This document shows, piece after piece, positions 10,131 to 63,938 of a stretch of DNA of 64,000 bases. The notes beneath the pieces are model-generated. The model was not told the origin of the DNA, did no database searches, and saw only the letters and a program-made list of their open reading frames with translations. The stretch is taken from the NCBI GenBank assembly GCA_040757775.1, contig JBFLWQ010000001.1, positions 58,917 to 122,916 on the forward strand. The letters run 5' to 3'. Each line of letters starts with the position of its first letter. Position 1 is the first letter of the stretch. This stretch comes from Thermodesulfobacteriota bacterium. GTDB taxonomy: Bacteria > Desulfobacterota > UBA8473. Both the position numbers and the translations under genes were made by a program.

Positions 10131-10230
10131 GATGTAACTTATTGATATTGTTGATATTTTATACTTGACAACCTGATCCCCATTCTGTATAATATCCTCA
10201 TAAATCCATAAAATGTAAGGGAGGGATATA

Positions 10231-14287: not shown

Positions 14288-14881
14288 ATGGAAGTGATCA
14301 CAGCACCGCCAAGGGCATCTAGTAGGACGGCAGTTTTTCAGAAGATGTTTGATATATGCAAGTCTGTAAAAGCGGCAGGACCTTACCTGATTGTTGAGAT
14401 AGGAACATTCAGGGGAGATTTTGAGGGAGATGGAGGCAGCACTTATTTTTTTGCTAAGTGGCTTTCTGAAAATGGAGGTGGGAAACTTCACAGCGTAGAC
14501 AATAACCCACAAGCAATTGAGATTTCCAGAAACGTATGCAAAGAATTTGATCGGTACATTGAATGGCACAACATGAGGTCTGAGGATTTTTTGAGAACAT
14601 TTCATGAGCATATTGACATGGTTTACCTCGATAGTATCGGATGGCGTAAGGATGGTGTAGATCAGTTTACGTGCCAGTATCAGCATTTGAAGGACTGGAT
14701 GCTTGTAAAGGATCGGTTGAATGGAGCGTTAGGGATTGATGATACCGATGGACTAAAGTATGGAAAAGGAGCGCAGATTGTAGCGTATTTGAACGGGAAA
14801 GGAGTGCCATGGCAGACCGTATACTGTGTCGAGCATGGAAAATGGCCTTGTGGAGTGGTTGCGGAATGGAGGTATAGATGA
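14288..14881 (+). CDS. SAM-dependent O-methyltransferase-like (family 3/TylF-like)
   Basis: LIVEIGTFRGD ... MVYLDS resembles class I O-methyltransferase motifs; RBS gaggagg. Confidence 0.45.
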   Translation: MEVITAPPRASSRTAVFQKMFDICKSVKAAGPYLIVEIGTFRGDFEGDGGSTYFFAKWLSENGGGKLHSVDNNPQAIEISRNVCKEFDRYIEWHNMRSEDFLRTFHEHIDMVYLDSIGWRKDGVDQFTCQYQHLKDWMLVKDRLNGALGIDDTDGLKYGKGAQIVAYLNGKGVPWQTVYCVEHGKWPCGVVAEWRYR

Positions 14882-15078
14882 GGAGAATAAGGAGGATAGA
14901 GATGAAAAGCAAAGATTCAAAAAGAAAGGTCTCAAAAATGATTAAGCCAAAGTTTCGGAAGTATCAGGAGCTTACAGTTGAACAACGAACTGATCCTGAT
15001 TATCGGGTAAAGGAGTTAATGAAGCTCAGTGGAGATGAATCCTTCATTGGATGTACCAAGTGCCATCATTGCCGATAG
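14878..15078 (+). CDS. small basic hypothetical protein
   Basis: 66 aa, Lys/Arg-rich, C-terminal CTKCHHC. Confidence 0.25.
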   Translation: MRRIRRIEMKSKDSKRKVSKMIKPKFRKYQELTVEQRTDPDYRVKELMKLSGDESFIGCTKCHHCR

Positions 15079-15098
15079 AGAAAAGGAAGATGAACTAA

Positions 15099-16535: not shown

Positions 16536-17286
16536 AAAGGATAACGAGACTCCTGTTGGAAAGATAGATCATCCCCATCCAGAGACGATATTGATAGATG
16601 TCGGCATGATAGACAGAGCTGAGTGGAACCCTAACGTAATGAAGGACAGAAAGTTTAATAAACTGGTTGAACAGATTAGGGAAGTGGGGATTCTCGAAAA
16701 TATTGTGGTGAGAAAAACTGAGAAGGATAGGTATGAGGTGGTAAGCGGACATTGGAGATATGATGCTGCGAAAGTCGCAGGTTATGAAAAAGTCCCATGT
16801 GTTATAAGAGAAGATTGGGATGATGATAAAGCAAAGATACAGAATATGAGGTTTAATGTCCTCAAAGGAGATATAGACCCGCTCAAGTTCAGTAAGATGT
16901 GGGACGACATAGCGAAGAGCTATGATAATGAAGAGCTTAAGGCGTTGATGGGATTTGTGGAAGACAGAGAATTTGAGAGACTGTATATTGACATCAAAAA
17001 ATCGTTACCAGACGAAGTAGCTGGTAAGCTTGATAAGGCTAAGAATGAAATCAAGACAGTAGACGATCTGTCCAATATCGTTAACGAGTTGTTTACGAAG
17101 CACGGAGATACATTGGACAGGTCATATATGATATTCAGCTATGGAGGCAAGGAGCATCTGTATATTGTGATGGGCAAGGAGTTACGAAAGAAAATGGAGT
17201 TTGTGAAGGAAAAAAGCTCTGCGGAGGATAGGGATATTAACGAAGTAATGCTTGAAATGATGAGGGACGGAGGAACTGGACAATGA
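16519..17286 (+). CDS. ParB-like nuclease domain protein
   Basis: ATG 16519 with RBS aaaggag (the track's 16456 start lies inside the upstream gene). ILIDVGMIDRAEWNPN...VVSGHWRYDAAKVAGYEKVPCVIRE matches the ParB/Srx N-domain. Confidence 0.55.
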   Translation: MARKAKKDNETPVGKIDHPHPETILIDVGMIDRAEWNPNVMKDRKFNKLVEQIREVGILENIVVRKTEKDRYEVVSGHWRYDAAKVAGYEKVPCVIREDWDDDKAKIQNMRFNVLKGDIDPLKFSKMWDDIAKSYDNEELKALMGFVEDREFERLYIDIKKSLPDEVAGKLDKAKNEIKTVDDLSNIVNELFTKHGDTLDRSYMIFSYGGKEHLYIVMGKELRKKMEFVKEKSSAEDRDINEVMLEMMRDGGTGQ

Positions 17287-17668: not shown

Positions 17669-18280
17669 ATGGCAAGAAAACGTAAAAAAAGGAAGAAGTA
17701 CAAAAGTTTTGTAAGGCTGAAAAAGTTGAAGTGTTTTTCTGAGGTTGACGTTCGTTTGCGTTGTGGAGCATCGCCAGAAAAGGTAGCCAGTTTTATCCAG
17801 CAGGAAATGAATGAATACGAAGACGTTAAATGGGTGTCGCTTGTCAGGCAACTGTACAAGTACAAGAAATCGATACCTGTAACCCAGGTTCTTAGCCCAA
17901 CGTATATTGATAGAGCGGTAAAACAGATAGAGATGTACATAGATATTGCCAATGATGAAGCAAAGTTGATTCAGTACCAGAAAATAAGATTAGCGTACTA
18001 CGGACAAAGAGAAGAAGTCATGAACGTACCCATTCACGAACAAAGTCGGAATATCGAATTGCTTGCGAATCTGTTGAAACAGCATCGGGATACGCTAATC
18101 GAGCTAGGAATCGTCAAGAGACAGCCAATTGAAATCGAAGAGAGGGTTGCTGGAAGGCTTGAACTTGAGCACAAGCATAAGCTATCGCCCCAAGAGACTC
18201 AAAGAGTGACATCAGAGGCACGAAAACTTCTGAAGTTATTAAAGGGTGGTAAGGATGAACGTGAGAGAAATACCGCCTAG
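17669..18280 (+). CDS. putative terminase small subunit
   Basis: 203 aa, basic N-terminus (MARKRKKRKKYK). Sits immediately upstream of and overlapping the large terminase; assigned on position only. Confidence 0.3.
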   Translation: MARKRKKRKKYKSFVRLKKLKCFSEVDVRLRCGASPEKVASFIQQEMNEYEDVKWVSLVRQLYKYKKSIPVTQVLSPTYIDRAVKQIEMYIDIANDEAKLIQYQKIRLAYYGQREEVMNVPIHEQSRNIELLANLLKQHRDTLIELGIVKRQPIEIEERVAGRLELEHKHKLSPQETQRVTSEARKLLKLLKGGKDERERNTA

Positions 18281-20186
18281 TTATGAATACGCTGTAACTG
18301 AGACACTGGCGAATCTGAGGTCAGAACAAGAGAAGGAATACCTCATCAAAATTCTTGAAGAGGTATCGACGAGGGGTGAGTCGCAAACACTTCATGAGCT
18401 GGAGGAAATAAAGTACATTGAGCGACCGGTTGACATTGAGACATTCGTAACAGAACCGTATTATCTCGGTACCCATGGCGTTGACCTCTATCCAAAGCTG
18501 AAGGATGATCTTATTGAGTTGTTTGAAGGAAAGTATAATATAGTTATTTTAAGTGGTTCTATTGGCTGGGGAAAGGACTTCTTTACGTCATTTGTAATTT
18601 CGAGGCTTCTGTATGAGGTAAGTTGTCTAAGAAACCCGCAGAGAACGTATGGCTTGGCACAGGATTCGTCCCTTGTCTTTTTGAATCTCTCCATCAATGC
18701 TACAAAGGCTAGAAAGGTACTGTTTAAGGAAATTGCTACGAAGATAAAAGCATCCCAATACTTTAAGGAAAAGTTTCCGTATGAATCGCACATCATGTCT
18801 GAACTGCGCTTCCCGAAGGATGTTAGAGTTGAGCCCGGTAACTCTCTTGAGACGTCGATTATAGGAGAGAACGTATTCGGGACGGCAATCGATGAGGTCA
18901 ACTTCATGGCTTATGTAGAAGGTAGCAAAATGGCCAGAGGCAGGAAGGTTTATGACCAGGCTGAACTGTTGTTTAGTGCTGCACAGAGGAGAATGAAATC
19001 CAGACTGCCACTTGGGGACCCACCAGGCATGTTGATTGCTCTCTCGTCTAAGCAGTACCCGGATGATTTTATCGAACGTAAAAAAGATGAGTTAAGAGAC
19101 GACCCAAAGGTGTTTGTTAGAGAATATGCAGAATGGGAGACCAAACCTGCTTCGAGGTATTTAGGTAAAACGTTTAAGGTGGAGGTATCTGGCAGGCATG
19201 GTATGTCGAGGGTCCTTGTTGGAAATGAAGAGAACATTGAAGGTAAGGTAATAGATGTTCCGATTGAATATAGGCACGACTTTGAAACTGATCTTGAAGG
19301 ATCGATCAGGGATATTGCAGGAATTTCTGTCCTTTCGGTGGAGCCGTTTATTATGCAACGAAATAAGATATATGACTGCATTCAGAATGAGAGAGAGCAC
19401 CCCTTCACCATGGTAGAAAGCACGCTACAGGACGGTGGAAGTATAAGGCGTGAAATATTGTGTGAGCATGATGAGGAACTGGGAAGGTGGACGCCAAGGA
19501 TGAATCCTGAAGCACGACGGTTTATTCATATTGATCCGTCTTTGTCTGGAGATGCGACCGGTTTCGCAATGGGCCATGTTTATAAGTATGTGAATGTGGT
19601 TAGAACTGGAAGGGTCAGACAACCTAATGAGGATGAGCAGGAATCTAGTAGGTCTGAGATTCACGTTGAGTTTGCCCCTGTCATCTATATTGATTTTATG
19701 CTGCGGATCATCCCACCGCCTGGTGGGGAAATTATACTTGGTGATGTAAGGACTCTCGTATATGAACTGAGCGTTCTTGGGTTCAAGATACATACGGTAA
19801 GCCTTGATTCCTTTCAGTCAGCGGACAGCCTTCAGCAGCTTGGACAAAAAGGTTATAATACCGAATTGCTAAGTGTTGATACTGATATTACCCCATACTC
19901 AATGACGAAAATGGCATTGTATGAGGATCGGTTGATGCTCTACAACTATGAGTGGGTGAGATATGGAAGAACGTATGGTATTGTTGAGGAGTTGAAGAGG
20001 CTAGAACATAATAAGAAGAAAAGGAAGGTAGATCACCCTGCCCAGTATTGGAAGGATCTCGGAGATTCGCTTGCTGGTGTGGTGTATCATTGCGAAACGA
20101 AACGTCACGATGAACCAGTTGGGCCAAGTAAGGGGTACACCGATGATGAGAGAGGAGTAGAGTTCCTTGAAAGAAAGCATAGATAG
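18255..20186 (+). CDS. terminase large subunit
   Basis: About 640 aa; ATPase Walker-A-like ILSGSIGWGKD near the N-terminus and nuclease-like acidic residues in the C-terminal half. Followed downstream by the portal gene. Confidence 0.6.
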   Translation: MNVREIPPSYEYAVTETLANLRSEQEKEYLIKILEEVSTRGESQTLHELEEIKYIERPVDIETFVTEPYYLGTHGVDLYPKLKDDLIELFEGKYNIVILSGSIGWGKDFFTSFVISRLLYEVSCLRNPQRTYGLAQDSSLVFLNLSINATKARKVLFKEIATKIKASQYFKEKFPYESHIMSELRFPKDVRVEPGNSLETSIIGENVFGTAIDEVNFMAYVEGSKMARGRKVYDQAELLFSAAQRRMKSRLPLGDPPGMLIALSSKQYPDDFIERKKDELRDDPKVFVREYAEWETKPASRYLGKTFKVEVSGRHGMSRVLVGNEENIEGKVIDVPIEYRHDFETDLEGSIRDIAGISVLSVEPFIMQRNKIYDCIQNEREHPFTMVESTLQDGGSIRREILCEHDEELGRWTPRMNPEARRFIHIDPSLSGDATGFAMGHVYKYVNVVRTGRVRQPNEDEQESSRSEIHVEFAPVIYIDFMLRIIPPPGGEIILGDVRTLVYELSVLGFKIHTVSLDSFQSADSLQQLGQKGYNTELLSVDTDITPYSMTKMALYEDRLMLYNYEWVRYGRTYGIVEELKRLEHNKKKRKVDHPAQYWKDLGDSLAGVVYHCETKRHDEPVGPSKGYTDDERGVEFLERKHR

Positions 20187-20776: not shown

Positions 20777-20998
20777 ATGATTGAGAGCAACAGGTTTCTA
20801 TATGTTTATACAGTGGCTAAAACGCTTGCGTGCAGTCCTGGATTGGTCTATCAGCTTGTCAAACGTGGTGAATTGGATGCTATAAAGGTAGGGAAAAGAG
20901 GGATACGAATTAGTAGGAATAGTCTTGAACTGTACATCGAACGAAATTTATTACGCACAGAGCGCACAGAGCGCATGGAGTGTCGTGGAGGAAGTTGA
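20777..20998 (+). CDS. helix-turn-helix DNA-binding protein (excisionase/MerR-like HTH)
   Basis: ATG 20777 (the track's TTG at 20726 is probably spurious). YVYTVAKTLACSPGLVYQLVKRGELDAIKVGKRGIRI is an Xis-family HTH. Confidence 0.5.
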   Translation: MIESNRFLYVYTVAKTLACSPGLVYQLVKRGELDAIKVGKRGIRISRNSLELYIERNLLRTERTERMECRGGS

Positions 20999-21088: not shown

Positions 21089-21122
21089 CCAAAGGACTTG
21101 TTGTCCTTTGGCTTTTCTGTTT
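21089..21122 (+). terminator. rho-independent terminator-like hairpin
   Basis: CCAAAGGAC-ttgtt-GTCCTTTGG (perfect 9-bp stem) followed by CTTTTCTGTTT. The track's TTG start for the portal (21108) lies inside this hairpin. Confidence 0.45.
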
Positions 21123-21137
21123 GAAAGGTACTCAGGC

Positions 21138-24100
21138 ATGTGGTTGATAGATAGAATTACTGATCTTCTGACGAAGGCCAAGTACGATCCGTCCGGAGTT
21201 GATGGTCCTGGAACTACGAGAACTGGTAATGAGCAGAACGGATGGTATTATAATCTGATAAAGCTCGAGGAGACACGAAAGGCACGATACAAAGATTATG
21301 ACACGATGGATGATGAGTTCCCGGAAATATCCTGTGTTACAGGAGACACAATAGTTCACTGTTTAGATGGAGATTTTACGATTAAGGAATTGACAGAGAA
21401 CAAGAAAGATGAAATGTTCTTGGTTTACAGTTGCGATGGGAATAGAATAGTTTTTGATGAAGCGTATGCTCCACGACTCTCAGGTAGAAAAGTAAAAGTT
21501 ATTCGCGTAAGGTACAGAAGCAACAACCGATGGACCCATGAACTACGAGTTACTGGCGACCATAAATTTATGATGAGGGACGGTAGCATGAAAATGGCTG
21601 GAAAGTTAAGGTCAGGAGATAGCCTAATGCCGTTCAACGCTCAGTATGTAAATGATAGGCGGGTCATTAAAGATTTGGATGGTAGGAAGGTCTATGCGTC
21701 CCATCTGGTATTTGAGCAATACGCCAATAGAGCAGTTGATCTTGGCAAAGTGATTCACCACATTGATGGGAACCGGAGAAACGACAATCCACTAAATTTG
21801 CATGAATTATCGCTTGAAGAACATTGCCGTAAGCATAGCATGGGGAATCAGCATACATTGGGAATGATATGGAACGATGATACTGAACGAGTGGAAAAGC
21901 ATAGAAAGCGGATGCTTGGGAATAAGCATAAAAAGGGGAAGGCCAATAGTATAGAAACACGAATGAAGATGAGGAAAGCTCATGCTGAAAGACGACTGCT
22001 AGGGCTAAAACGAAACAGAGAATATGGAAAGCCATGGAACAAGATACAAATTACGCCGGAAGATTTGGTAAATGCTGTTGAAAGAACGAATGATTATAGA
22101 GAAGCAAGCGAACTGTTAGGAATTTCAGTTCCTGTGTTTTTCAGGCGTGTGAAGGATTTTGGTTTAAGGGGAGCTGTTGATTATAATCATGTGGTAGTAG
22201 GTATCGAAGATGGAGGGTTTGAGGATGTTTATGATTTGACGACACGGCGTACTCATAAGTTTGCTGCGAATCACCTAATTATATCGAATTCGAGTATCGA
22301 TATATATTCAGACAATGCGACACAGTCGGTTGATGGAACGCATGAGTCGTTTTGGATAGAATCCGAAGACCAGAAAGTAAAGGATGTTCTGACCAGGATT
22401 AACGAGGAGACTGGACTGCAAGATTCGATTTGGTCTATTGGGCGAAATCTGGTTAAGTATGGAGATGATTTTGAGGAAATAGTATTAAACTCAAGTATGT
22501 TCGTAGTAGATATAAAAGGATTGCCCTGTGAGCAGATGTACAGGAATGAGGATGAATACGGCAGGTTGCTAGAGGATGGTGCGTTCACGCAGAGAGACGT
22601 AAGCACAAACAAGGAGCTTGCAGAGTTTAAGAGCTGGCAGATCGTCCATTTCAGAAATGTGGTGAAGAGAGGGACGAAATACGGGAGGAGTTTACTGTAT
22701 CCTGCAAGAAAGGTATTCAAACAGTTACAGATGATGGAAGACGGTATGGTGATTGCGAGGCTGACCAGGAGCAACATGAGGTACAAGTGGAAAATCGATG
22801 TCGGCAATATGTCTGCAAATGAGGCACGTACATTCCTGAGAGATGTCAAGATGGAGCTCAGAAAGAAGCGCGTTATTGACCCTGCTACGGGCAAGTTTAA
22901 ACTGACCGATAATCCATTAAAAGATGAGGAAGATTTTTTTGTGGCTGTAAGGGATGGATCTCCGGCTGACGTTGATGCCATACAAGGTTCTGCAACGCTT
23001 GGTACTATTGGTGATGTAGAGTATTTTCAGAATAAGCTGTTTTCGATGCTGAAGGTACCGAAGGCGTATCTTGGATTGGAGAGAGATGTGAATGCTAAAT
23101 GTTTGGCTGGCGATACCCCGATATGTCTTGCAAATGGGAAAGATATGCCGATTCGTGAATTAGTAAAGCTTTATAGTAATGGGCAAAGGTTTTACGTGTA
23201 TTCATGCCGTAGAGATGGTGAGATAGTAATAGCAGAAGCACATTCCCCAAGGATAACAAGAAGAAATGCCGAAATGGTAAAAGTGACGCTCGATAGTGGG
23301 GTGAGCTTCAGGTGTACACCTGACCATCCGATAATGTTGCGCTCAGGTTCTTTTTGTCAGGCGAAAGATATTAAGAATGGCACAAGCATTATGCCTTTGT
23401 ATAGAAAGATCTCCGAGAAACCTGAGAATAGTATTAGCGGATACGAGTTACATAGAAATCCACGAACGGGCCAATGGAGATATACGCATAGGCTTGTTGG
23501 AAGACATCTTCCCAGGCCGATCGGTGAAAAGCGTTGGGTCATGCACCATGTTGATTTTGATAAGAGAAATAACTCGCCAGACAACCTTGTTCTCATGACG
23601 TGGGACGATCATGTAAAGCTACACATGGCTTTTGTAGCGTTGTTGCATACCGAAGAAGTTAAGAAGCGTAGCAGAGAGGGCGTTTTGAAATCTGCAAAAT
23701 TCAAAAAAAGACTGTTGAGCATGAATAGCAGCCTTTGGAAGAGAGCGAAGTCTAGCAAGACATTGAGACGATTGTATGCTGAAGGCGTTATGAATGTAAA
23801 GGGTGTCCTAAATCCAAGATACAGAAAGGATGTCACGGTTGAAAGTATAGCGAATGCAGCTCGAGAAGCAAAATGTTCATCTGCAAAAGAGATACAAGAA
23901 AAAACTGGAATTAATTATTCGTTGTTAAGAAGACGACTTGACAAGTTGGGACTAAGTTATCAAGAGTTTGCAGATAAAGTTTTGGAAGCGGGGTATAGAA
24001 AAACTGGATGGCATCGCCCTGACTTAAGTCTTGAAAAAATAGGTGAAGCCATCGCTTCCTTCGCAACAGTAAAAGAGGCAGCAGAAAAATTAGGTGTTAA

Positions 24101-24752
24101 CCGGCCTGACCTTTACCAGATATGTAAAAGAAGAGGGACGACTGTTCAGGAATTGCGGGCATCCAACCATAAAGTAGTGAGCGTTGAACCCGACGGCGTG
24201 GATGCCGAAACGTACGACTTAACTGTAGATAACTATCATACGTTTGCAATAGGGTGTGGTATCTTTGTTCATAATAGCACCCTGACCGTACAGGATGTAC
24301 AATTCGCAAGGACTGTCCGTAGGTATCAGAAGATATTAACGAATCAGATAAGATCGATATACAATCTAGGGCTAATCTTGCAATCATTGGATCTTGCGAA
24401 GTCTCCGTATTATGTTTTCTTTCCACCTATAAATACTGTTGATGAGCTTGCTAGGTGGCAAACCGAAAAGGTAAAGGCTGAGATAGCAAAGATTTACGGG
24501 ATTGATATTAACTGCGTGTCTGAGGAATTTATTCTGTCCTATTATCTTGGACTGACTGACAATGAGATTAAGGATGTTTCAGGACAGACGAAACCGGTAC
24601 GGCAGGGCAAGGAGCAGCAGGTAGTAGAAACGATCACGACTTCCAACATCGAACCGCATGAGCTACTAGAGCTTGGAAATCTACTGGAAGCTCTGAGAGA
24701 CCTTGTTGAAATTGAACTGGAGAAGAAGGAACAAGAACGATGGGAGCATTAG
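21138..24752 (+). CDS. portal protein interrupted by two HNH-type inteins
   Basis: First ATG after the hairpin. Removing the two inteins leaves an extein of about 500 aa, typical for a portal, in the position after the terminase. Confidence 0.55.
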   Translation: MWLIDRITDLLTKAKYDPSGVDGPGTTRTGNEQNGWYYNLIKLEETRKARYKDYDTMDDEFPEISCVTGDTIVHCLDGDFTIKELTENKKDEMFLVYSCDGNRIVFDEAYAPRLSGRKVKVIRVRYRSNNRWTHELRVTGDHKFMMRDGSMKMAGKLRSGDSLMPFNAQYVNDRRVIKDLDGRKVYASHLVFEQYANRAVDLGKVIHHIDGNRRNDNPLNLHELSLEEHCRKHSMGNQHTLGMIWNDDTERVEKHRKRMLGNKHKKGKANSIETRMKMRKAHAERRLLGLKRNREYGKPWNKIQITPEDLVNAVERTNDYREASELLGISVPVFFRRVKDFGLRGAVDYNHVVVGIEDGGFEDVYDLTTRRTHKFAANHLIISNSSIDIYSDNATQSVDGTHESFWIESEDQKVKDVLTRINEETGLQDSIWSIGRNLVKYGDDFEEIVLNSSMFVVDIKGLPCEQMYRNEDEYGRLLEDGAFTQRDVSTNKELAEFKSWQIVHFRNVVKRGTKYGRSLLYPARKVFKQLQMMEDGMVIARLTRSNMRYKWKIDVGNMSANEARTFLRDVKMELRKKRVIDPATGKFKLTDNPLKDEEDFFVAVRDGSPADVDAIQGSATLGTIGDVEYFQNKLFSMLKVPKAYLGLERDVNAKCLAGDTPICLANGKDMPIRELVKLYSNGQRFYVYSCRRDGEIVIAEAHSPRITRRNAEMVKVTLDSGVSFRCTPDHPIMLRSGSFCQAKDIKNGTSIMPLYRKISEKPENSISGYELHRNPRTGQWRYTHRLVGRHLPRPIGEKRWVMHHVDFDKRNNSPDNLVLMTWDDHVKLHMAFVALLHTEEVKKRSREGVLKSAKFKKRLLSMNSSLWKRAKSSKTLRRLYAEGVMNVKGVLNPRYRKDVTVESIANAAREAKCSSAKEIQEKTGINYSLLRRRLDKLGLSYQEFADKVLEAGYRKTGWHRPDLSLEKIGEAIASFATVKEAAEKLGVNRPDLYQICKRRGTTVQELRASNHKVVSVEPDGVDAETYDLTVDNYHTFAIGCGIFVHNSTLTVQDVQFARTVRRYQKILTNQIRSIYNLGLILQSLDLAKSPYYVFFPPINTVDELARWQTEKVKAEIAKIYGIDINCVSEEFILSYYLGLTDNEIKDVSGQTKPVRQGKEQQVVETITTSNIEPHELLELGNLLEALRDLVEIELEKKEQERWEH
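21333..22289 (+). mobile_element. intein 1 (319 aa) with HNH homing-endonuclease domain
   Basis: Begins ...PEIS|CVTGDTIVHCLDG (block A); block B TGDHKF; HNH core HHIDGNRRNDNPLNLHEL...EEHCRKH; ends VYDLT...THKFAANHLIISN|S (blocks F/G, Ser+1). Confidence 0.5.
23100..24275 (+). mobile_element. intein 2 (392 aa) with HNH homing-endonuclease domain
   Basis: Begins ...NAK|CLAGDTPICLANG; HNH core HHVDFDKRNNSPDNLVLMTWDDHVKLH; ends TYDLTVDNYHTFAIGCGIFVHN|S (canonical HN + Ser+1). Confidence 0.6.
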
Positions 24753-45967: not shown

Positions 45968-46336
45968 ATGGAGGTTGAGCCAATGGAAGGATTTGGTCGT
46001 CATTTTACTTTTGATGGAGTAATCAAGGATATAAGTTTGATTGAACCAGAAAGGGTAAGAGATTTTCTTAATAAATGCCCTGATGAAATAGAGATGACCA
46101 AGATTACACTTCCATCGGTGTATGAAATAGGCGGTAAAGTTATTGGGATGGTTATTATAGCTGAAAGCCATATAAGTTTTCATGGAAACCTGAACACAGG
46201 ATTAATAAATATTGATGTATTTTCCTGCATGTTTTTCAGTTTTAAAACAGCCTTTGATACAGCAGAAAAATATTTCCCTTGCAACAGGGTTAAAACCAAT
46301 TTTATTGAAAGAGGTTTAGAATTTGTAAGAACCTAG
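45968..46336 (+). CDS. S-adenosylmethionine decarboxylase-like pyruvoyl enzyme (small SpeH/SpeD class 1a type)
   Basis: 122 aa; ...GKVIGMVIIAESHISFHGNLNTGLINIDVFSC aligns with the AdoMetDC proenzyme core (ESH self-cleavage site ... DVFTCG). Confidence 0.55.
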   Translation: MEVEPMEGFGRHFTFDGVIKDISLIEPERVRDFLNKCPDEIEMTKITLPSVYEIGGKVIGMVIIAESHISFHGNLNTGLINIDVFSCMFFSFKTAFDTAEKYFPCNRVKTNFIERGLEFVRT

Positions 46337-46349: not shown

Positions 46350-46901
46350 GTGGATTGGTCAGATGTAGTCGATGTCATAAAGAAGGTAGCTCCAACAGCA
46401 GAGGGATTATTGTCTGCTTTTGGAGGTCCACCAGGGATGATAGCTGCGGGGGCGATTAAGGCAGCAGCGATGGCTTTTGGATTATCCGAGACCGCTAAGC
46501 CAGATGAGTTAGTTTCAGCAATAGCTAATGATCCTCAAGCCGCTTTAAAACTTGCGCTAGCCGATCAGGATTTCAAGCTGAAAATGAGAGAGCAGGATAT
46601 TGAAGAGATAAAGACTAAGCTTGTGGATGTTCAAAATGCTCGTAATATGAATGTTGAAGGAGTTAAAGCGACTGGAAAAAGAGATGTGGAAGATAAAGTT
46701 TTTGACTGGTTCCTCATTATTGGTTTCTTTACAATACTTGGACTTATGCTTTGGTTAAAGCCGCCTGAAAGTACCAATCTAGGATTAATGATAGGGGCGG
46801 TTATTATGGCATTCGGACAAGTAGTCAATTTTAGGAAGGGAACAACAGTAAATAGTTCGAGAAAAACAGAATTGCTTGCGAAAGCGGAACCAATATTTTA
46901 A
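46350..46901 (+). CDS. membrane protein (holin-like candidate)
   Basis: GTG start after RBS aaggagg; two C-terminal TM helices (FDWFLIIGFFTILGLMLWL; LGLMIGAVIMAFG). Confidence 0.35.
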   Translation: MDWSDVVDVIKKVAPTAEGLLSAFGGPPGMIAAGAIKAAAMAFGLSETAKPDELVSAIANDPQAALKLALADQDFKLKMREQDIEEIKTKLVDVQNARNMNVEGVKATGKRDVEDKVFDWFLIIGFFTILGLMLWLKPPESTNLGLMIGAVIMAFGQVVNFRKGTTVNSSRKTELLAKAEPIF

Positions 46902-47119
46902 CTAAGAAAACTAAGAAATTTATCGATAAAAAAAGGATTACAACGCTTTTTATCGCTTTACGTAGTATCAACAGTAAAGCATCTGTAAAAATATCGGGGC
47001 TTTTCTGAAAACATCAATAACATTAACTACTTACATGATGTCTAAAAACGCCTACAATGAATTTTCTTTTTTAAACCCATATAAACCTACCTTTGTTTGA
47101 CATCCATTGATTTTGTTCC

Positions 47120-47240
47120 AGATCAATACCATCAACTGTTTACCGATTCAACAATATCAATACTTCACCGTCCATAGTCACCGAATCAATAAAATCAAGC
47201 CTTTACCGATTCAATAATATCAAGTATTTACCGTCAAGAA
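47120..47240 (+). repeat. iteron-like direct repeat array (TCAAYAAYATCAA core, >=4 copies)
   Basis: TTTACCGATTCAACAATATCAA at 47139-47160 and TTTACCGATTCAATAATATCAA at 47202-47223 (21/22 identical), with degenerate copies at ~47121, ~47178 and another ~46987. Confidence 0.45.
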
Positions 47241-47277
47241 AAACGGCATAAGTACTTAAAATCATTGCATTTTTTTC

Positions 47278-47306
47278 TTGACACCAGTTTATCTGTATGC
47301 TAGAAT
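47278..47306 (+). promoter_or_regulatory. sigma70-like promoter P1 (TTGACA-17-TAGAAT) with conserved leader
   Basis: TTGACA at 47278-47283, 17-nt spacer, TAGAAT at 47301-47306; downstream leader GAAATCATAAAACATAAATCACAAAGG, then RBS + ATG 47346. Confidence 0.55.
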
Positions 47307-47345
47307 GAAATCATAAAACATAAATCACAAAGGGGGAAAAAGGAG

Positions 47346-47555
47346 ATGCCAAGCCAGGAAGCAATTGAGGAGATTGAGAACATAACCGAGTATCTCATAA
47401 GGTTCGCAACCAGGCCCCCAAAGGGCTCCCTTACACCTTACCTAATCGGTACTAAGCTCCTAAATGAGGGATTGAACAACCCTTCAAATCTCGCAATAGT
47501 AATGGCTGATCTTAAGAAAGCAGGAGTAAAGATTCAATCTGCCAGAAGGTATTAA
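47346..47555 (+). CDS. hypothetical early protein
   Basis: RBS aaaaaggag + ATG; 69 aa. Confidence 0.35.
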   Translation: MPSQEAIEEIENITEYLIRFATRPPKGSLTPYLIGTKLLNEGLNNPSNLAIVMADLKKAGVKIQSARRY

Positions 47556-47556
47556 G

Positions 47557-47733
47557 ATGATGGAAATAGAAAGAAGTATAGTCAAGAAAAAATTGATGGA
47601 CGCTGAAGGATACTTCCTTGATAGGAAAATGATAGCGTTCGATGGAACTGGAGACCTTCATATTCAGTGGCTACTGGCAATAGTGAAATTAATAGTGGCA
47701 GGAAAGCTAACCCTAAAAGGAGAATTAGAATGA
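47557..47733 (+). CDS. hypothetical small protein (not in ORF track)
   Basis: 58 aa; ATGA coupling to the next gene. Confidence 0.25.
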   Translation: MMEIERSIVKKKLMDAEGYFLDRKMIAFDGTGDLHIQWLLAIVKLIVAGKLTLKGELE

Positions 47734-47951
47734 GGTCAATTGAAGAAATTGTTGAAAGTGTTCTTATGGAAGAAAAGAAATTGTTTCCACAGGAGTCTGA
47801 CACAGAGAGGCTAAAAGCAACAAAGCATCTCTGCAAAAGATGCGAATCCCCTGTTATCAATGGACGCATTATCTGTCCAAGGCTCGAAAGGGAGATAGCA
47901 CTTGAAGGATGCAACCGCATTTATGGAGGTAACTGTGCACCAGTTTTATAA
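47730..47951 (+). CDS. zinc-ribbon small protein
   Basis: ATG 47730 with RBS aaaaggag (the track's GTG at 47667 rejected); CKRCESP...CPRLE. Confidence 0.3.
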   Translation: MRSIEEIVESVLMEEKKLFPQESDTERLKATKHLCKRCESPVINGRIICPRLEREIALEGCNRIYGGNCAPVL

Positions 47952-48420
47952 CGAAATTGAAGGATGGTTAACTGATTCAAAATTGAAGGTAAATGGCTGC
48001 CCGGACTTCCCGAGAAAGATCGCTCTTGATTGTTTGGTGTTAGGAGGTCCTGAAAAATATGGAGTTGCCAAGAAAATGTGGCGAAGTGCTTATGAGAACG
48101 TGAGACATCTTCTCACCGATGAAGCCTTTGCTGATTTTGCTTCCGTTGGATTAACAGTTTGGATAGCGGAGCAAGGACTTGATGGAACGCTGACCGAATT
48201 CATAATGGACTATGTTGCTTACCTGGTTGAGAAAGACCTAGAGGTTGAGATCAAGGGAAATACGACATCGAAGAAATCAATGGGGGTTAGAATTAGAGGC
48301 AAAACCCCTGAAATTGCAAATTTAGTATATCAGAAAATGATGGATGGTGCTTTGAAACTGGTTGGGAGCATCGATGAGGTATTTGCTAATCTTCTCAATA
48401 CCATAATTCTAGCAAGATAA
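47902..48420 (+). CDS. hypothetical protein
   Basis: 172 aa, no motif recognised. Confidence 0.3.
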   Translation: MKDATAFMEVTVHQFYNEIEGWLTDSKLKVNGCPDFPRKIALDCLVLGGPEKYGVAKKMWRSAYENVRHLLTDEAFADFASVGLTVWIAEQGLDGTLTEFIMDYVAYLVEKDLEVEIKGNTTSKKSMGVRIRGKTPEIANLVYQKMMDGALKLVGSIDEVFANLLNTIILAR

Positions 48421-48430
48421 GGAGAAATGT

Positions 48431-48811
48431 ATGAAAAAAGGTACGTACTATATAGGGGATCCAGGTTACGTCTTCGATGAGTCTTGGGAAGATTTTTTAG
48501 AAGAAACGGAATACTGCGAAGATGGGATATATGAATATACAGGGGAAATGGTATGTGTTGGCAAAACGGCTTATGGAGATGGTGCTTACTATGATATGCA
48601 GAGAAGGAGGTATGCGGTTGACTCTGGTTCGTTGGGTATTTTACCAGTTTCTTTGCTAGAGATGGATAATATAGAGACCGTTGAAAGTATCAAAAGCAAA
48701 TGCTTTTCCCATATCGTAGAAATGAAAGAAGATTTTGATTGCAACGTAAAAAATGGGGTTTTTAGGTTTGGAAATATTGTAATTGATACAAAAGATGATG
48801 GAGAAGAATAA
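48431..48811 (+). CDS. hypothetical protein
   Basis: 126 aa; YIGDPGYVF...GDGAYYD...VDSGSLG motifs, family unknown. Confidence 0.3.
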   Translation: MKKGTYYIGDPGYVFDESWEDFLEETEYCEDGIYEYTGEMVCVGKTAYGDGAYYDMQRRRYAVDSGSLGILPVSLLEMDNIETVESIKSKCFSHIVEMKEDFDCNVKNGVFRFGNIVIDTKDDGEE

Positions 48812-48821
48812 GGAGGAAGTT

Positions 48822-49049
48822 ATGGCTTACGATCCGGACTTAGATAAGGTGGTGAAGGAGTTTACGCATGAGAATGGTCTCTGTGTATCGATAAACCGCT
48901 ACAATGGTGGAGACGAGAAGGTACAGATAGGACCAAGGGTTATTGGAAAGGGGACTATCGCCGAAAAAAAAGTGAAGGCTGGAAGGCTGTCTAAGGAAGA
49001 GTTTGAATGGGTTTGCTCATTGAGAGAGAAGATAGAGAAGTGTTTGTAG
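48822..49049 (+). CDS. hypothetical small protein
   Basis: ATG 48822 with RBS aaggagg (the track's TTG at 48783 rejected). Confidence 0.3.
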   Translation: MAYDPDLDKVVKEFTHENGLCVSINRYNGGDEKVQIGPRVIGKGTIAEKKVKAGRLSKEEFEWVCSLREKIEKCL

Positions 49050-49092
49050 TCATTGCAAACTGATTGCAGGATGATAGATGAAAGGAGACAAA

Positions 49093-50505
49093 ATGGCTAC
49101 AGGTGATAATTGGCTTGAGGTTTCAAGAAGTGGCCTCAGAGAGTTACAGGAAGGTAAGCCGAAGCACTTTATTGTCCGGGAACTTGTGCAGAACGCTTGG
49201 GATGAAAAGGTAACGTACTGCAAGCTGACCACAAGTTGGAATAAAGGTGTTGCTAAGATTGAGGTTGAAGATGATAGCCCGGAAGGATTCAGAGATTTAT
49301 CGGATGCCTTTACGTTGTTTTCCCATACATACAAGAGGTCTGATCCTGAGAAGCGTGGTAGGTTTAATCTTGGCGAGAAGGAAGTTCTAGCGATGTGTGA
49401 TTATGCCTTGATACGGACTACGAAAGGGACCCTAGTTTTTGATAATAACGGGAGGCATAGGTCTGGTCGAAAGCGGATAGCTGGTACGGTTATAATGGTA
49501 CATGTCAAGATGAAGAAGTTCGAGTACGATGATATGCTGAAGGCACTACGAAAGTACATGGTGCCTGATGGAATCAGGTTTAGTGTCAACGGAGAAGAGG
49601 TCTTGTATCGTCGACCGTTCAAGGTATTTGAGGCTACGCTTCCTACAGAATACGTAGTGAATGGTGTGTTTACAAGGACAAGAAGAAAGACTCGAATCCA
49701 TGTTATGCATCGTAACCCTGAAAGCGGTGCAATGTTGTATGAATTAGGAATCCCGGTCTGTGAGATTGAGTGTCTATACGACATTGATGTTCAGCAGAAG
49801 GTTCCGCTGTCAACCGACAGGAGTATGGTTCCCGAAAGCTATTTGTCAAACGTCTATGCGGAAGTGCTCAATGCGGTATACGAGGTTGTGCCTGAAGAGT
49901 GTGCATCTGAGCAATGGATTAGAGAGGCGATTGGGAATAGCAGAATAGGACGTGAGGCACTCAAGGATGTTATTGAAAAGAGATTTGGAGACAAGGTTGT
50001 AGTTGCCAACCAGTGGGATAGAACGTCTATTGATAGAGCTGTTTCGGAAGGATATAGAGTAATTAGGGGGCAGGATCTCTCAAAGGCTGAATGGACGAAT
50101 GTACATCAGTATGAACTGATTAAGTCATCGAGCGTTCTGTTCGGTACGAGGTTTGTAGGATTCACGGAAGTGGACCCCGATGATAACATGAGGAAGGTAG
50201 CCGAGCTTGCCCGAAAGATTGCGAAAGGATATCTTGGGGTGGATATTCTGGTTAAGTTTGCTCGATGGGAAGGGAATACAGGAGCAGAGTATGGCAATAA
50301 GGAGTTGTCGTTTAATGTTGCATGTCTTGGCGTGGGTTTTTTCAATCCACCACTGTCCGAAAAGGTAATAGATCTGATTGTTCACGAAATATGTCACGAG
50401 CGTGGTTTGCACACGCAGGCAAGTTATCATAATGCACTGACTGGGGTTTGTGGAATGCTGGTTATGATTGCTTTGAAGGAACCTGAATTCTTTGAAGTTG
50501 ATTAA
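49093..50505 (+). CDS. GHKL/HATPase-like ATP-binding domain protein with C-terminal HExxH motif
   Basis: ATG 49093 with RBS aaaggagac. N-terminus FIVRELVQNAWDE...IEVEDDSPEGF...GRFNLGEKEV matches a Bergerat-fold N-box/G1/G2 layout of the sacsin/HATPase_c_3 type; C-terminus LIVHEICHERGLH. Confidence 0.45.
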   Translation: MATGDNWLEVSRSGLRELQEGKPKHFIVRELVQNAWDEKVTYCKLTTSWNKGVAKIEVEDDSPEGFRDLSDAFTLFSHTYKRSDPEKRGRFNLGEKEVLAMCDYALIRTTKGTLVFDNNGRHRSGRKRIAGTVIMVHVKMKKFEYDDMLKALRKYMVPDGIRFSVNGEEVLYRRPFKVFEATLPTEYVVNGVFTRTRRKTRIHVMHRNPESGAMLYELGIPVCEIECLYDIDVQQKVPLSTDRSMVPESYLSNVYAEVLNAVYEVVPEECASEQWIREAIGNSRIGREALKDVIEKRFGDKVVVANQWDRTSIDRAVSEGYRVIRGQDLSKAEWTNVHQYELIKSSSVLFGTRFVGFTEVDPDDNMRKVAELARKIAKGYLGVDILVKFARWEGNTGAEYGNKELSFNVACLGVGFFNPPLSEKVIDLIVHEICHERGLHTQASYHNALTGVCGMLVMIALKEPEFFEVD

Positions 50506-50529
50506 ACAGATAGTAAAGGAGGTGAAAAG

Positions 50530-50778
50530 ATGTTTTGTAAAAAATCGGATCACCAGTACGCTGAGAAGGAATGCCCGCAGTGTGGACAGGAGTTTTGCTA
50601 CGCCTGTTGTAACGGGACAAACGTAGACCAGGAAGGAAATTATGACCCTGATTACATGAACTGTCCCTATTGTGGAGCAGACTACTACGGAGCAGATTAC
50701 TACACTCCTGTCCGTGATATAGCAGGGCAAATTGTAAACGGATTGCAAAAAAGCTCGGTACCCCACCCCAAACGTTAA
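50530..50778 (+). CDS. zinc-ribbon protein
   Basis: CPQCGQEFCYACC...CPYCGADYYGADYY; RBS aaggaggtg. Confidence 0.35.
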   Translation: MFCKKSDHQYAEKECPQCGQEFCYACCNGTNVDQEGNYDPDYMNCPYCGADYYGADYYTPVRDIAGQIVNGLQKSSVPHPKR

Positions 50779-50795
50779 AGGAAGGAGAATGAGAA

Positions 50796-51005
50796 GTGGA
50801 AATAACAAAAGAAGCAATGGAACAATATGAGAAAGTTAGGGCAAGCGGGATTTGTAATATGTTTGATATGAATTGTGTCGCTACGGTATCCAAGAAGCTG
50901 AAATTCAAAGAATTATACAAGATAGTTCAAAGCAGGAAAGAATATGGAAATTTATTGGAGAATTTCAGCGTTCTAATGAAAAAATATGGAATAAAACAGA
51001 GATAA
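50796..51005 (+). CDS. hypothetical small protein
   Basis: GTG start after RBS aaggaaggagaa. Confidence 0.3.
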   Translation: MEITKEAMEQYEKVRASGICNMFDMNCVATVSKKLKFKELYKIVQSRKEYGNLLENFSVLMKKYGIKQR

Positions 51006-51078
51006 GAGGTAAGCCCATGGTAAACCAAACATAGGGTGCAAAAATTTGCTAAGTATTTGATATTACGTCATTTTTTAT

Positions 51079-51107
51079 TTGACAACTAAATTTTTTTCTG
51101 CTAGAAT
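51079..51107 (+). promoter_or_regulatory. sigma70-like promoter P2 (TTGACA-17-TAGAAT), near-identical module to P1
   Basis: TTGACA at 51079-51084, 17-nt spacer, TAGAAT at 51102-51107; leader GAATCATAAACCACAAATCATAAGG parallels the P1 leader. Confidence 0.55.
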
Positions 51108-51154
51108 GAATCATAAACCACAAATCATAAGGCAATGGAAGGAAGGTGAGCGAA

Positions 51155-53020: not shown

Positions 53021-55138
53021 ATGGGAATAGAAAAGATAAGAGAGGAAATGAGGAAAGACTTTGTTGAACGGTCTGAGCTTGTTGATGGATGCCTTGTTGC
53101 TGTGTTGGCAAAACAGCACTTATTGATGATAGGTCCTCCAGGAACGGCTAAGAGTTTGCTCTGCAATGATCTCTGTCTCAGGGTGGATGGTGCCGTGTAT
53201 TTCCAGTGGCTACTCACGAAGTTCAGTACACCGGAAGAGATATTTGGGCCGATTTCGCTAAGCCACCTGGAGAAGGATGAGTACAAAAGGATAACTGCAG
53301 GGAAGTTACCGGAAGCTCATATTGGGTTCTTGGACGAAGCTCTTGACTTGGATACTCCACTAGCAACGCAGGAAGGATGGAGCACGGTAGGACAGGTTAA
53401 AATAGGAGATACGATCTTCGGAGCAAATGGAAGTCTAGTCAATGTAATAGGCATGACGGAGATAGCAGCAAATAGAGACTGTTATAAAGTGACTTTACAG
53501 AATGGAGAGTCTATTGTAGCTGATGCTGGGCATAACTGGCTATGTCGAAGAGGTAGAGGTCATCATAGGGTTCCTTTCAAGGTTAGAACGACTTTGGAAA
53601 TGGCAAATGAACTTAAGAAGAACGGATTCTTGCAGCTTCCACTTCCTAAGCCTGTCCAGCTACCGGAGCAAGACTTACCAATAGACCCGTATGTTTTAGG
53701 GCTATGGTTGGGTAATGGTAATTCGTGGAACGGTGAAATTTTAATGCGGAGAGAGTGGGCCGATGCTGCTCTAGCAGAGATACGGAAGTCACTGCCAAAG
53801 GCAAGAATAGTTGAAAGGGCAAATTGTTCCAAACAGTTGAGAACTATTTCCGTGGGAGATACTGGCTTACGATCCAAATTGGGAGATGCAGGATTGCTGC
53901 TTTCCAGAAGTGTTTACAGGGGGAGTGGCAAGAGCGTCCCGTTGGTATATTTACGTAGCTCGCTTGGTCAGCGCTTGCGATTAGTACAGGGGTTAATGGA
54001 TACGGATGGATATATGCAAAAGGGAGGAACATGTACGTTTAGCAATACGAATGAGAACATCGTTGACGGCATAGTTGAACTGCTTAATAGCTTAGGAATC
54101 AGGTGTTCAAAAAGGCTAACCAACGATAAAAGGGTAGGAGCTAAAGGGCGGCATAAGAGATGTTGGAAGGTAAATTTTAGGGCAACGCCGGGTATGCCTC
54201 CGTTTCTGGCTAGGAAAGTTTATATTCCCCCTTTGAAACAGCGACGCCATATCAGAGTTGTGTCTGTCAAAAAGGTAAAGTCACGTCCGGTAAGATGTAT
54301 TGCGGTTGACTCAAAGGATCATCTGTTTTTGGCTGGCAGAGTGATGGTGGTTACGCATAACTGTTTCAAGGCAAACTCGGCCATCCTGAATAGCTTACTG
54401 AGCATCGTAAACGAGCGTGTTTACCACAACGACTCGAAGCCAATGCCTGTTCCACTGTTCTCGTTGTTTGGTGCTAGCAACGAGTTACCCCATGGAGAGG
54501 AGCTTGGAGCACTGTACGATAGGTTTCTGCTTCGGTATGAGGTTGGATACATAGGAGAGGATTCAGGCTTCAAGGAGATGCTGCTGTTGGAAGAAAGACC
54601 TACGAAGGAGATGATGAGCCTTCAGGAGTTGGAAAAACTACAGGCCGAGGTTGTGAAAGTTGAAATCCATGATGATTTGATTGAAATGGTTATCAAGCTA
54701 CGTGGTGAATTGAAGAAGGAAGGTATCATCGTATCCGATCGTAGGTGGAAGCATAGCCTGACATGTCTTCAGGCGTTTGCACTGTTGAATGGGCGTAGCA
54801 AGGTTGTTGAAGAGGACCTTGAAATTCTACATCACATTCTGTGGTCGTACCCTGAACAGAAAAAGGTTGTAACCAGGATTGTTAACTCGATTGCAAATCC
54901 GTTGAACCAGAGAGCAATGGAAATATTGGACCAGGCTACCGAAATCTACAACGATGCAGTGGTTAATGGCACAACAGAGCTTGGGATCGAGGCAAATGCA
55001 AAACTGAAGAAACTAAGAGCTGAGATCGATAGTCTGATTAAGAACGCAACTGGTGGTATGACAAAGGCTGAAGAAGTACGAGAGAAGGTGAAGGAGTTCA
55101 ACAAGGTCATAGTCCAGAAGTGCCTCGGTCTCGAATAG
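53021..55138 (+). CDS. MoxR-type AAA+ ATPase interrupted by an intein
   Basis: Walker A MIGPPGTAKSLL; Walker B HIGFLDE, then a 341-aa insertion, then CFKANSAILNSLLSIVNER (MoxR sensor region). The extein is about 364 aa. Confidence 0.6.
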   Translation: MGIEKIREEMRKDFVERSELVDGCLVAVLAKQHLLMIGPPGTAKSLLCNDLCLRVDGAVYFQWLLTKFSTPEEIFGPISLSHLEKDEYKRITAGKLPEAHIGFLDEALDLDTPLATQEGWSTVGQVKIGDTIFGANGSLVNVIGMTEIAANRDCYKVTLQNGESIVADAGHNWLCRRGRGHHRVPFKVRTTLEMANELKKNGFLQLPLPKPVQLPEQDLPIDPYVLGLWLGNGNSWNGEILMRREWADAALAEIRKSLPKARIVERANCSKQLRTISVGDTGLRSKLGDAGLLLSRSVYRGSGKSVPLVYLRSSLGQRLRLVQGLMDTDGYMQKGGTCTFSNTNENIVDGIVELLNSLGIRCSKRLTNDKRVGAKGRHKRCWKVNFRATPGMPPFLARKVYIPPLKQRRHIRVVSVKKVKSRPVRCIAVDSKDHLFLAGRVMVVTHNCFKANSAILNSLLSIVNERVYHNDSKPMPVPLFSLFGASNELPHGEELGALYDRFLLRYEVGYIGEDSGFKEMLLLEERPTKEMMSLQELEKLQAEVVKVEIHDDLIEMVIKLRGELKKEGIIVSDRRWKHSLTCLQAFALLNGRSKVVEEDLEILHHILWSYPEQKKVVTRIVNSIANPLNQRAMEILDQATEIYNDAVVNGTTELGIEANAKLKKLRAEIDSLIKNATGGMTKAEEVREKVKEFNKVIVQKCLGLE
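53339..54361 (+). mobile_element. intein (341 aa) with LAGLIDADG homing-endonuclease motifs, Ala at position 1
   Basis: Starts FLDE|ALDLDTPLAT (block-A-like with Ala1); LAGLIDADG-like YVLGLWLGNGN and RLVQGLMDTDGYM; ends VMVVTHN|C (HN + Cys+1), inserted at Walker B. Confidence 0.55.
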
Positions 55139-57908: not shown

Positions 57909-57966
57909 GCTAAAATAATTTGACATTGGATAGAATGAAAATAAGTTAAGGAAAACGAGGTGATAG

Positions 57967-61663: not shown

Positions 61664-61843
61664 ATGAAGCGCAAGTTAAAGGTGATAGAAAGGTACTACG
61701 ATAACGAATTTCGAGGTGGGGGTCACTCTGAAATCAGGCTAAAGGGTAAATGGCTTTTGAAGTTTGGGTTCAAGCCAGGAGCTAAGGTGGAAGTGGTGCC
61801 TGAGGATGGTAGGTTGGTTATTCAGTTGATAAAAGATGGTTGA
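61664..61843 (+). CDS. SymE-like / AbrB-fold small protein (not in ORF track)
   Basis: 59 aa; IRLKGKWLLKFGFKPGAKVEVVPEDGRLVIQLI resembles the SymE-family core (LxGxWLxxxGFxxGxxVxV...GxLxI); RBS ggggtggtgga. Confidence 0.35.
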   Translation: MKRKLKVIERYYDNEFRGGGHSEIRLKGKWLLKFGFKPGAKVEVVPEDGRLVIQLIKDG

Positions 61844-63028: not shown

Positions 63029-63235
63029 TTACCTCTTTTTAATCCTGTCTATCTCACCTTTTAGCATCTTTTCCTTTACAGCCTGTATTTCCTCAAGTAC
63101 TTCTGCTTTGGTGATTATGCCTTTCCTATCTAGAACGTTTATAAGTGCCTCGGTTGTTACCATTTCTGACACCAAAAGGTCTTCAGTACTCACCATTTCT
63201 CGAATGTCTAATTTTTCTGCCATGGGGTACCTCAT
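63029..63235 (-). CDS. hypothetical small protein (minus strand)
   Basis: 68 aa; RBS (revcomp) precedes ATG at 63233-63235; strand switch relative to the upstream phage genes. Confidence 0.35.
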   Translation of the reverse strand: MRYPMAEKLDIREMVSTEDLLVSEMVTTEALINVLDRKGIITKAEVLEEIQAVKEKMLKGEIDRIKKR

Positions 63236-63320
63236 TTATCAGAAAAGTAGGAGTGCCTGATGTCTATCAAACTTTCCGTTAGAGTAACACAAACTCTTGA
63301 TTCTTGTTCCCCCGTTACGT

Positions 63321-63938
63321 TTATTTATCAAGAACATTTGCGATTAATATTATTCCAGGATAGTAGCAACCCTTATATTCTAGTTGACGCACAATCTTGG
63401 GAAAACACCAAGCAATTGCATGATCTTGTCTTGGAAGAATCATATTTATGAAGGCTTGGATATCATTGTCCAGGTTTGTTGCTTCCTCTTTTTTGATACA
63501 GGGTTCAATGAAAGCAACACCGACCCCAATACCACCATTGCAACGGACACGTTTAATGTCATCAATTGCTTTAAGGATTGTCTTTTCTATCTGACTCGAA
63601 GCCTGTAAAGTCTTTAAATTAACTCCATCGTACTTCGTTTCAATAGACCACTCTTCCTCACTGGTGCCTATCCATAAATCGACTCTTCCCTTATAGATTT
63701 CTTCTGATTCAGCAGTCACCTTTTTTTCATCCGAATATGCCTCTACGGCCACAAAGCCTGAACGCCAAGCTGCAGCAGCAAGCATACTAGTATTTGCTCT
63801 TTCATTGTACCAGTAAGGTGCATCACCTTTACAAACTGTTACATATTTCTCAACTACCCAAATCCAGTCTTTCAAAAGAAAACCCCAAGGCTCTAACGAT
63901 GCATTATTAATAAGATAACCATCAATTGATTGAACCAT
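63321..63938 (-). CDS. hypothetical protein (minus strand)
   Basis: 205 aa; RBS aggaggtag (revcomp of 63939-63950) upstream of the start. Confidence 0.4.
   Translation of the reverse strand: MVQSIDGYLINNASLEPWGFLLKDWIWVVEKYVTVCKGDAPYWYNERANTSMLAAAAWRSGFVAVEAYSDEKKVTAESEEIYKGRVDLWIGTSEEEWSIETKYDGVNLKTLQASSQIEKTILKAIDDIKRVRCNGGIGVGVAFIEPCIKKEEATNLDNDIQAFINMILPRQDHAIAWCFPKIVRQLEYKGCYYPGIILIANVLDK

Follow-up and report, generated by a model that had tools for sequence, protein, structure and literature searches.

We found that four direct copies of an asymmetric 23-nt motif stand upstream of a near-consensus promoter (P47278) in a prophage-like block of DNA, and that the motif recurs at other promoters of the same prophage. 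The window, which is the whole 64-kb stretch of DNA that was analyzed, begins in host genes and runs into the prophage. From its sequence we lean, with slightly better than even confidence, toward the interpretation that the array is a multi-site transcriptional operator or enhancer for P47278, probably one that bends DNA, and that it is shared with other promoters of the prophage.

The original prediction described two 22-bp repeats at this location. Both 22-mers (TTTACCGATTCAAYAATATCAA) are present, at 47139-47160 and 47202-47223, where they lie 63 bp apart and are identical at 21 of 22 positions. A repeat search placed them within a tandem repeat of two 63-nt units (47122-47184 and 47185-47247, 73% identity), and a better repeat unit is the motif TCAAYAMWATCAA-N3-TTYACCG, which is 23 nt long and in which three free bases separate a 13-mer (TCAAYAMWATCAA, the A box) from a 7-mer (TTYACCG, the B box). 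Four copies of this motif, each with 0-1 mismatch, are arranged as direct repeats at a copy-to-copy spacing of 25/38/25 nt and together make up the two 63-nt super-repeats (Table 1). The further degenerate copies that had been predicted were found in part inside the array, where two of them belong to the four copies, and a weaker third was located at 47014-47036 (PWM 15 bits). This last copy falls outside the predicted span of 47120-47310, and the array itself starts at 47122. The repeats are real and far beyond chance: with up to three mismatches allowed, the window holds five motif matches compared with 0.07 expected, and none of the shuffles reached five. An Rfam scan returned nothing above gathering score, and single-strand folding of the array DNA was unremarkable (z = -1.3).

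Table 1. Features of the array, the other motif sites and the prophage. Positions are those of the window; centers of sites are given relative to the predicted transcription start of P47278 at 47313.
Feature	Position	Strand	Remarks
tRNA-Arg(CCT)	8635-8711		directly at the prophage left edge
Satellite site, TCAACAATATCAATAAGTTACAT	10132-10154	-	17/20 positions, 13-mer exact; 10 nt upstream of -35
Promoter TTGACA-17-TATAAT	10165-10193		12/12, the only perfect one in the window
Satellite site, TTAATAATATCAAGCACTTAAGG	14180-14202	+	in the module II copy 14167-14253, upstream of the gene at 14288
Large terminase (likely)	18246-20186		by position only; no family hit
Module II	47001-47087	+	weak motif copy 47014-47036 overlapping the -35 of CTTACA-17-TACAAT (47030-47058); paralogue of 14167-14253
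Inverted partial A box, ATTGATTTTGTT	47105-47117	-	just upstream of the array; from the repeat search
Array site 1, TCAATACCATCAACTGTTTACCG	47123-47145	+	PWM 31 bits; one mismatch to IHF core; center ~-179
Array site 2, TCAACAATATCAATACTTCACCG	47148-47170	+	PWM 30 bits; one mismatch to IHF core; center ~-154
Orphan 7-mer GTCACCG (B box without A box)	47177-47183	+	in the 15-nt gap behind the 38-nt spacing, between sites 2 and 3
Array site 3, TCAATAAAATCAAGCCTTTACCG	47186-47208	+	PWM 33 bits; exact IHF core 47193-47205; center ~-116
Array site 4, TCAATAATATCAAGTATTTACCG	47211-47233	+	PWM 33 bits; exact IHF core 47218-47230; center ~-91
Degenerate inverted motif copy	47246-47268	-	12/20 positions; 9 nt upstream of the -35 of P47278; center ~-51
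Promoter P47278, TTGACA-17-TAGAAT	47278-47306	+	11/12, TG extended -10
Conserved leader	47307-47345	+	three 8-nt CAYAAA repeats and Shine-Dalgarno, before the 69-aa ORFan gene at 47346
Satellite site	51047-51069	-	13/20 positions, exact IHF core; 9 nt upstream of -35
Promoter TTGACA-17-TAGAAT with TG	51079-51107		

Divergence between the copies is unevenly distributed. When one 63-nt unit was compared with the other, 36 of 40 motif positions were identical versus 10 of 23 other positions (Fisher p = 2e-4), and in pairwise comparisons of the copies the motif agreed at 16-19 of 20 positions and the spacers at 0-2 of 5. Because the spacers are saturated with change while the motif has remained constant, this pattern of substitution argues that the array motif is under selection and that the copies do not simply reflect a recent duplication.

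The non-coding stretch that holds the array had been given as 330 bp and turned out to measure 444 bp (46902-47345). It has a GC content of 31% and is composite, with module II, the array and module I following one another in that order. The consensus promoter that had been predicted at its end was found in the expected form, and the degenerate inverted motif copy next to its -35 pairs tail-to-tail with array site 4. A perfect 11-nt inverted repeat (GTCAAGAAAAA / TTTTTCTTGAC) also occupies this region, at 47233-47243 and 47272-47282, and its right arm includes the -35 of P47278; read on the reverse strand, the left arm contains a divergent -35-like TTGACG that is followed 17 nt on by TTGAAT. 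Upstream of the gap are genes for a DUF5675 protein, an AdoMet_dc-like protein and a 183-aa protein (46350-46901), and downstream of it are small ORFan genes. Homologues of the 183-aa protein were retrieved in five other contexts, and in four of these they come after lysozyme, SLT, Hydrolase_2 or GH108 genes; the 183-aa gene therefore closes a lysis cassette, which makes the predicted boundary between late or lysis genes and early genes a reasonable one.

The motif search of the whole window, which the original prediction had proposed as a check, identified other good copies only at strong promoters (10132-10154 and 51047-51069) and in a duplicated promoter-like module (14180-14202 and 47014-47036). 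The degenerate 13-mer has four exact matches in 64 kb. Three are within the array. The fourth, at 10142-10154 on the reverse strand, stands upstream of the one promoter in the window that scores 12/12, 10 nt from its -35. When a PWM derived from the four array copies was run over the window, further hits of at least 15 bits appeared only at 10132(-), 14180(+) and 47014(+), all of them inside non-coding DNA, which amounts to 3.5% of the prophage.

The three near-consensus sigma-70 promoters (10165, 47278 and 51079) are the three best in the window and belong to paralogous modules that align over ~80-110 nt. In this module I an inverted motif copy is followed by a T tract, the -35, the -10 and a leader in which three 8-nt CAYAAA repeats lead to the ribosome-binding site. 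Local alignment of 47249-47330 with 51050-51130 scored 36 (shuffles 10.7 +/- 1.4), and that of 10135-10220 with 51050-51132 scored 19 (shuffles 9.7 +/- 1.7). The promoter-proximal inverted copies match the motif at 12-17 of 20 positions, those at 47246 and 51047 being weak and that at 10132 better, and part of this likeness could come from the shared ancestry of AT-rich upstream regions. Promoter and leader together span 10165-10230, 47278-47345 and 51079-51145 in the three copies of module I, and the CAYAAA leader could act as an operator at the transcription start or work at the level of translation or of RNA. The -10 and discriminator of module I (TAGAATGAA) have a third and last copy in the window at 57921-57940, upstream of the beta-clamp gene, with a TTGACA only 5 nt upstream of it; this element is either a decayed or a variant promoter.

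Module II is a second duplicated element, and its 87-nt copies (14167-14253 and 47001-47087) align with a score of 27 (shuffles 12.2 +/- 1.8). In module II a motif copy on the + strand overlaps the -35 of a CTTAMR-17-TACAAT element, the module has a T-rich tail, and CGCCTACAATGA is common to both copies without a mismatch. The copies stand at the two ends of a ~33-kb block in which genes for DNA modification, packaging, structural proteins and lysis are found. The one at 14.2 kb, which is directly upstream of the long block leading into the packaging, structural and lysis genes, is possibly the late-operon promoter. More generally, module II may be an activator-dependent late promoter, or it may be a recombination scar flanking the late block.

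The 3′ two-thirds of the repeat unit read as WATCAANNNNTTR, which we take to be the E. coli IHF consensus; its likeness to the array motif was then tested as a pattern alone, and the three variable bases (N3) of the motif lie within the N4 of the consensus. Exact matches to WATCAANNNNTTR number nine in the window, versus 4.7 expected, and five of these are at motif sites (47193, 47218, 10135, 14187 and 51050), so that five of the nine motif sites carry an exact core. After allowing for the number of consensus sequences that one could try, the significance of the pattern is ~0.01-0.05. Conservation extends to bases outside the E. coli IHF consensus, with a 5′ TCAA kept in seven of nine sites and a 3′ CCG kept in the array alone. 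Sites 1 and 3, like sites 2 and 4, are 63 bp apart, which is exactly six helical turns. The footprint of IHF is ~35 bp, and neighboring sites are 25 bp apart from center to center; four IHF dimers could therefore not all bind together, and simultaneous occupancy by IHF would be possible only at alternate sites, 63 bp apart. No HU or IHF homologue encoded by the phage was found in the 64-kb window. In Geobacter, which belongs to the same phylum as the host, IHF binds promoter regions, and the sites there were predicted from the E. coli consensus (PMC7962754). A sigma-54 promoter and the Fur, CRP and H-NS consensus sequences were also compared with the region by eye and were dropped.

We suggest that the four high-affinity copies of the 23-bp site, together with the fifth, weak inverted copy, would form a docking platform upstream of P47278. 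Each of the other strong promoters of the prophage has one copy of the motif, so that a single DNA-binding factor could coordinate a small promoter regulon, and the array would be the strongest nucleation or bending center of that factor. From the IHF-consensus core and the phasing of six helical turns we infer that the upstream DNA is bent or wrapped on binding. The ligand may be host IHF, a phage protein with IHF-like specificity, or IHF in combination with a phage factor that reads the flanks (5′ TCAA and 3′ CCG). Binding would probably set the activity of the promoter: it may activate it by way of upstream contacts, or it may repress or insulate it in the lysogen. Candidate DNA-binding proteins of the prophage are an excisionase-family HTH_17 protein (20777-20998), which is the helix-turn-helix protein at 20777 named in the original prediction, a ParB_N protein (16456), a SymE/AbrB-like protein (61664) and the 69-aa ORFan; none is tied to the motif. 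The 69-aa product of the first gene downstream was modeled by AlphaFold as three helices (pLDDT 69), and Foldseek matched it to no known fold. A bolder version, which we consider quite improbable, sees in the array a composite nucleoprotein scaffold of a type undescribed so far, in which host IHF and a phage-specific factor would jointly read the alternating 13-bp A and 7-bp B boxes and which would serve as the master switch of a regulon of paralogous promoters, or as an origin and an enhancer in one.

The original prediction allowed for a phage replication origin as well as an operator. As an origin, the four repeats would be iterons for a phage initiator that melts the nearby AT-rich DNA, and the adjacent promoter would activate the origin transcriptionally; we think this unlikely. 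The array does present at least three direct repeats of ~17-23 bp, as iteron origins do, in the form of four 23-nt copies, but their spacing is not the regular ~two helical turns of classical iterons, and only the 63-nt super-repeat is in helical phase. The position of the array between the late and the next gene block is also that of the origins of lactococcal c2-type and 936-type phages. However, Pfam, PHROGs and NCBIfam revealed no gene of the Rep, O or primase type overlapping the array or next to it, the neighbors being a lysis accessory gene and ORFans; a phage replication module was not found within the window, and the initiator could be encoded elsewhere. While the repeats sit in non-coding DNA of low GC content, this AT-richness is equaled at 14.0, 50.9 and 60-62 kb, and no unwinding element stands out. 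IHF-type sites are common in origins (pSC101, R6K and oriC), but a search allowing up to one mismatch found no DnaA box between 43942 and 58124, that is, for 3 kb upstream and 10 kb downstream, and the GC skew shows no inflection. Copies of the motif at three other promoter regions would be unexpected for iterons. It is these copies that lend support to the operator half of the original prediction, whereas the lack of an initiator gene and of a DnaA box nearby counts against the origin half.

Two other explanations fare worse. The array could be a parS- or parC-type site for the ParB_N protein (16456-17286), or a terminase pac or cos site built with IHF, which we judge very unlikely. P1 parS and lambda cosB are sites built with IHF, and known parC sites are repeat arrays upstream of a promoter; the array is reminiscent of P1 parS in particular, in that 13-mer A boxes alternate with 7-mer B boxes and the core is of the IHF type. 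The prophage does encode a protein with a ParB_N domain, but this protein scores far below the cut-offs of partition families, no ParA, ParM or TubZ-type NTPase is present in the window, and the element adjoins tRNA-Arg and host genes and so appears integrated. For a packaging site, the terminase genes are 27 kb away from the array. It is hardly credible that the array is a functionless remnant, in which part of a promoter module was once duplicated in tandem and the copies are now decaying without any role. Such a history would account for the resemblance of the unit to the element beside the -35 of the paralogous promoters, in a region that clearly arose through duplications (seen in the 63-nt super-repeat and in the paralogues of modules I and II), but neutral decay would not concentrate divergence in the spacers and leave the motif positions ~90% identical, which is the signature of purifying selection.

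The window, which comes from a Thermodesulfobacteriota MAG, starts with host genes for a PFK-receiver fusion, UbiA, PabA/B-like enzymes and a GGDEF protein, after which the prophage-like block extends from ~8.8 kb to 63 kb or beyond; its genes are all on the + strand, and its GC skew is positive throughout. The block contains an HNH gene, genes for PIG-L, WbqC, methyltransferase and glycosyltransferase proteins and the ParB_N protein, followed by a T4-type portal gene with inteins and by tail genes up to ~45 kb. Beyond the ORFans that follow the gap, it encodes a GHKL-like ATPase, DUF6908, a MoxR ATPase with an intein, VWA, DUF6744, a beta-clamp, RadC, a DUF4942 methyltransferase and a SymE-like protein. 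No integrase was found in the 64-kb window, nor was a repeat of the 3′ end of tRNA-Arg, and the right end of the prophage is thus probably beyond 64 kb. An attP remnant was ruled out, given that none of the 12-mers of the tRNA region is found again in the window. Partial motif-like strings, TCAATAATTTC at 8717 and ATTGTTGAAT at 8864-8873, lie in the interval (8712-8881) that separates the tRNA from the first phage gene. The portal gene (21108-24752) carries intein splicing, HNH and HTH insertions, and the MoxR-type AAA ATPase gene (53021-55138) carries a LAGLIDADG (Hom_end) intein. PIG-L deacetylase, WbqC-like, methyltransferase (three) and glycosyltransferase genes are clustered at 12110-16535, and an AdoMet-decarboxylase-like gene is located in the lysis region (45968-46336); together these may be a DNA- or surface-modification module. 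Near the right end, a small protein of the SymE family (AbrB fold) is encoded at 61664-61843 (Pfam E = 7e-10), and downstream of it are small reverse-strand genes (63029-63938) that gave no family hit.

The prophage is novel, having neither a syntenic relative nor a second array in INPHARED, IMG/VR, the GTDB species genomes or the JGI metagenomes. INPHARED phages returned nothing by megablast, blastn or tblastn, and IMG/VR returned nothing with the flanking proteins or the motif. The 23-mer pattern was found at 109 loci in GTDB genomes, and each of the 80 listed has a single motif hit and thus no second array. Among the matches listed were a repeated element of two Rhodobacterales MAGs (Ruegeria sp. 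and Paracoccaceae), with 12 identical copies, and one orthologous intergenic site kept in four Pandoraea genomes, and both are unrelated to the phage. A two-unit pattern had no hit in JGI metagenomes, and a promoter-module pattern had none among viruses and five in metagenomes, which are unrelated. A search of 5.8 billion proteins matched the downstream 69-aa and 172-aa proteins to nothing but themselves. Loci reached by way of the 126-aa and DUF6908 proteins have no more than single genes in common with the prophage, and the contexts downstream of homologues of the upstream 183-aa gene are unrelated.

If the operator or enhancer reading is correct, the motif and the two promoter modules would supply a map of transcription units for a prophage that otherwise defies annotation and whose phylum has been little studied. 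These units would be 10231-14069, 14288-46901 (the late block), 47346-51005 and 51146 onward. As a 23-bp sequence in four copies, the motif would also be a defined DNA bait with which the regulator could be fished out. The array is an ordinary element of a known kind in a novel phage; it would add one more case of phage IHF-type bending sites that control early promoters and would open no long-standing question.

Several known systems resemble the array in part. In phage Mu, an IHF site in the operator/enhancer region affects the early promoter Pe (PMC3820752). The Mu early operator/enhancer (O1-O2 and the IHF site) is like the array in combining asymmetric sites with an IHF-type site upstream of an early promoter of a temperate phage. 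However, the motif differs, the repeated unit of the array itself carries the IHF-type core, the ligand of the array is putative, and a Mu-like repressor or transposase is absent here. Apl of phage 186 and Cox of P2, small winged-helix regulators and recombination directionality factors, bind cooperatively to direct repeats that lie between or near early promoters, bend the DNA and act at other sites too (PMC7498355). The prophage likewise encodes an excisionase-family protein of the HTH_17 type, which is a candidate only, but Apl and Cox sites are ~10-11 bp apart and low in information, whereas the units of the array are 23 bp long, spaced at 25 bp and highly specific. Iteron origins (lambda ori, P1 oriR and iteron plasmids) share with the array a set of 3-5 direct repeats of ~20 bp in AT-rich DNA by a promoter; the array departs from them in its irregular spacing, in having no adjacent initiator gene or DnaA boxes, and in the copies of its motif at other promoters. 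Single IHF sites, such as those of lambda pL, Mu Pe, sigma-54 promoters and Geobacter targets, are also found upstream of promoters, and the exact core is present at five of the nine sites here. As in those systems, the host phylum has a functional IHF (PMC7962754). Unlike known IHF sites, those of the array stand in tandem at a spacing of 25 bp and have the extra conserved flanks TCAA and CCG. The RK2 KorB OB sites, the gp71 stoperators of mycobacteriophage L5 and the early-promoter repeats of phiC31 are cases of one motif at many promoters, including positions just upstream of the -35. Their motifs and proteins are unrelated to those found here; OB sites are palindromic, whereas the array motif is asymmetric, and L5 stoperators keep a single orientation relative to transcription, whereas the prophage copies do not. 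The array is nevertheless like these three systems in that its motif is spread over several promoter regions of a mobile element.
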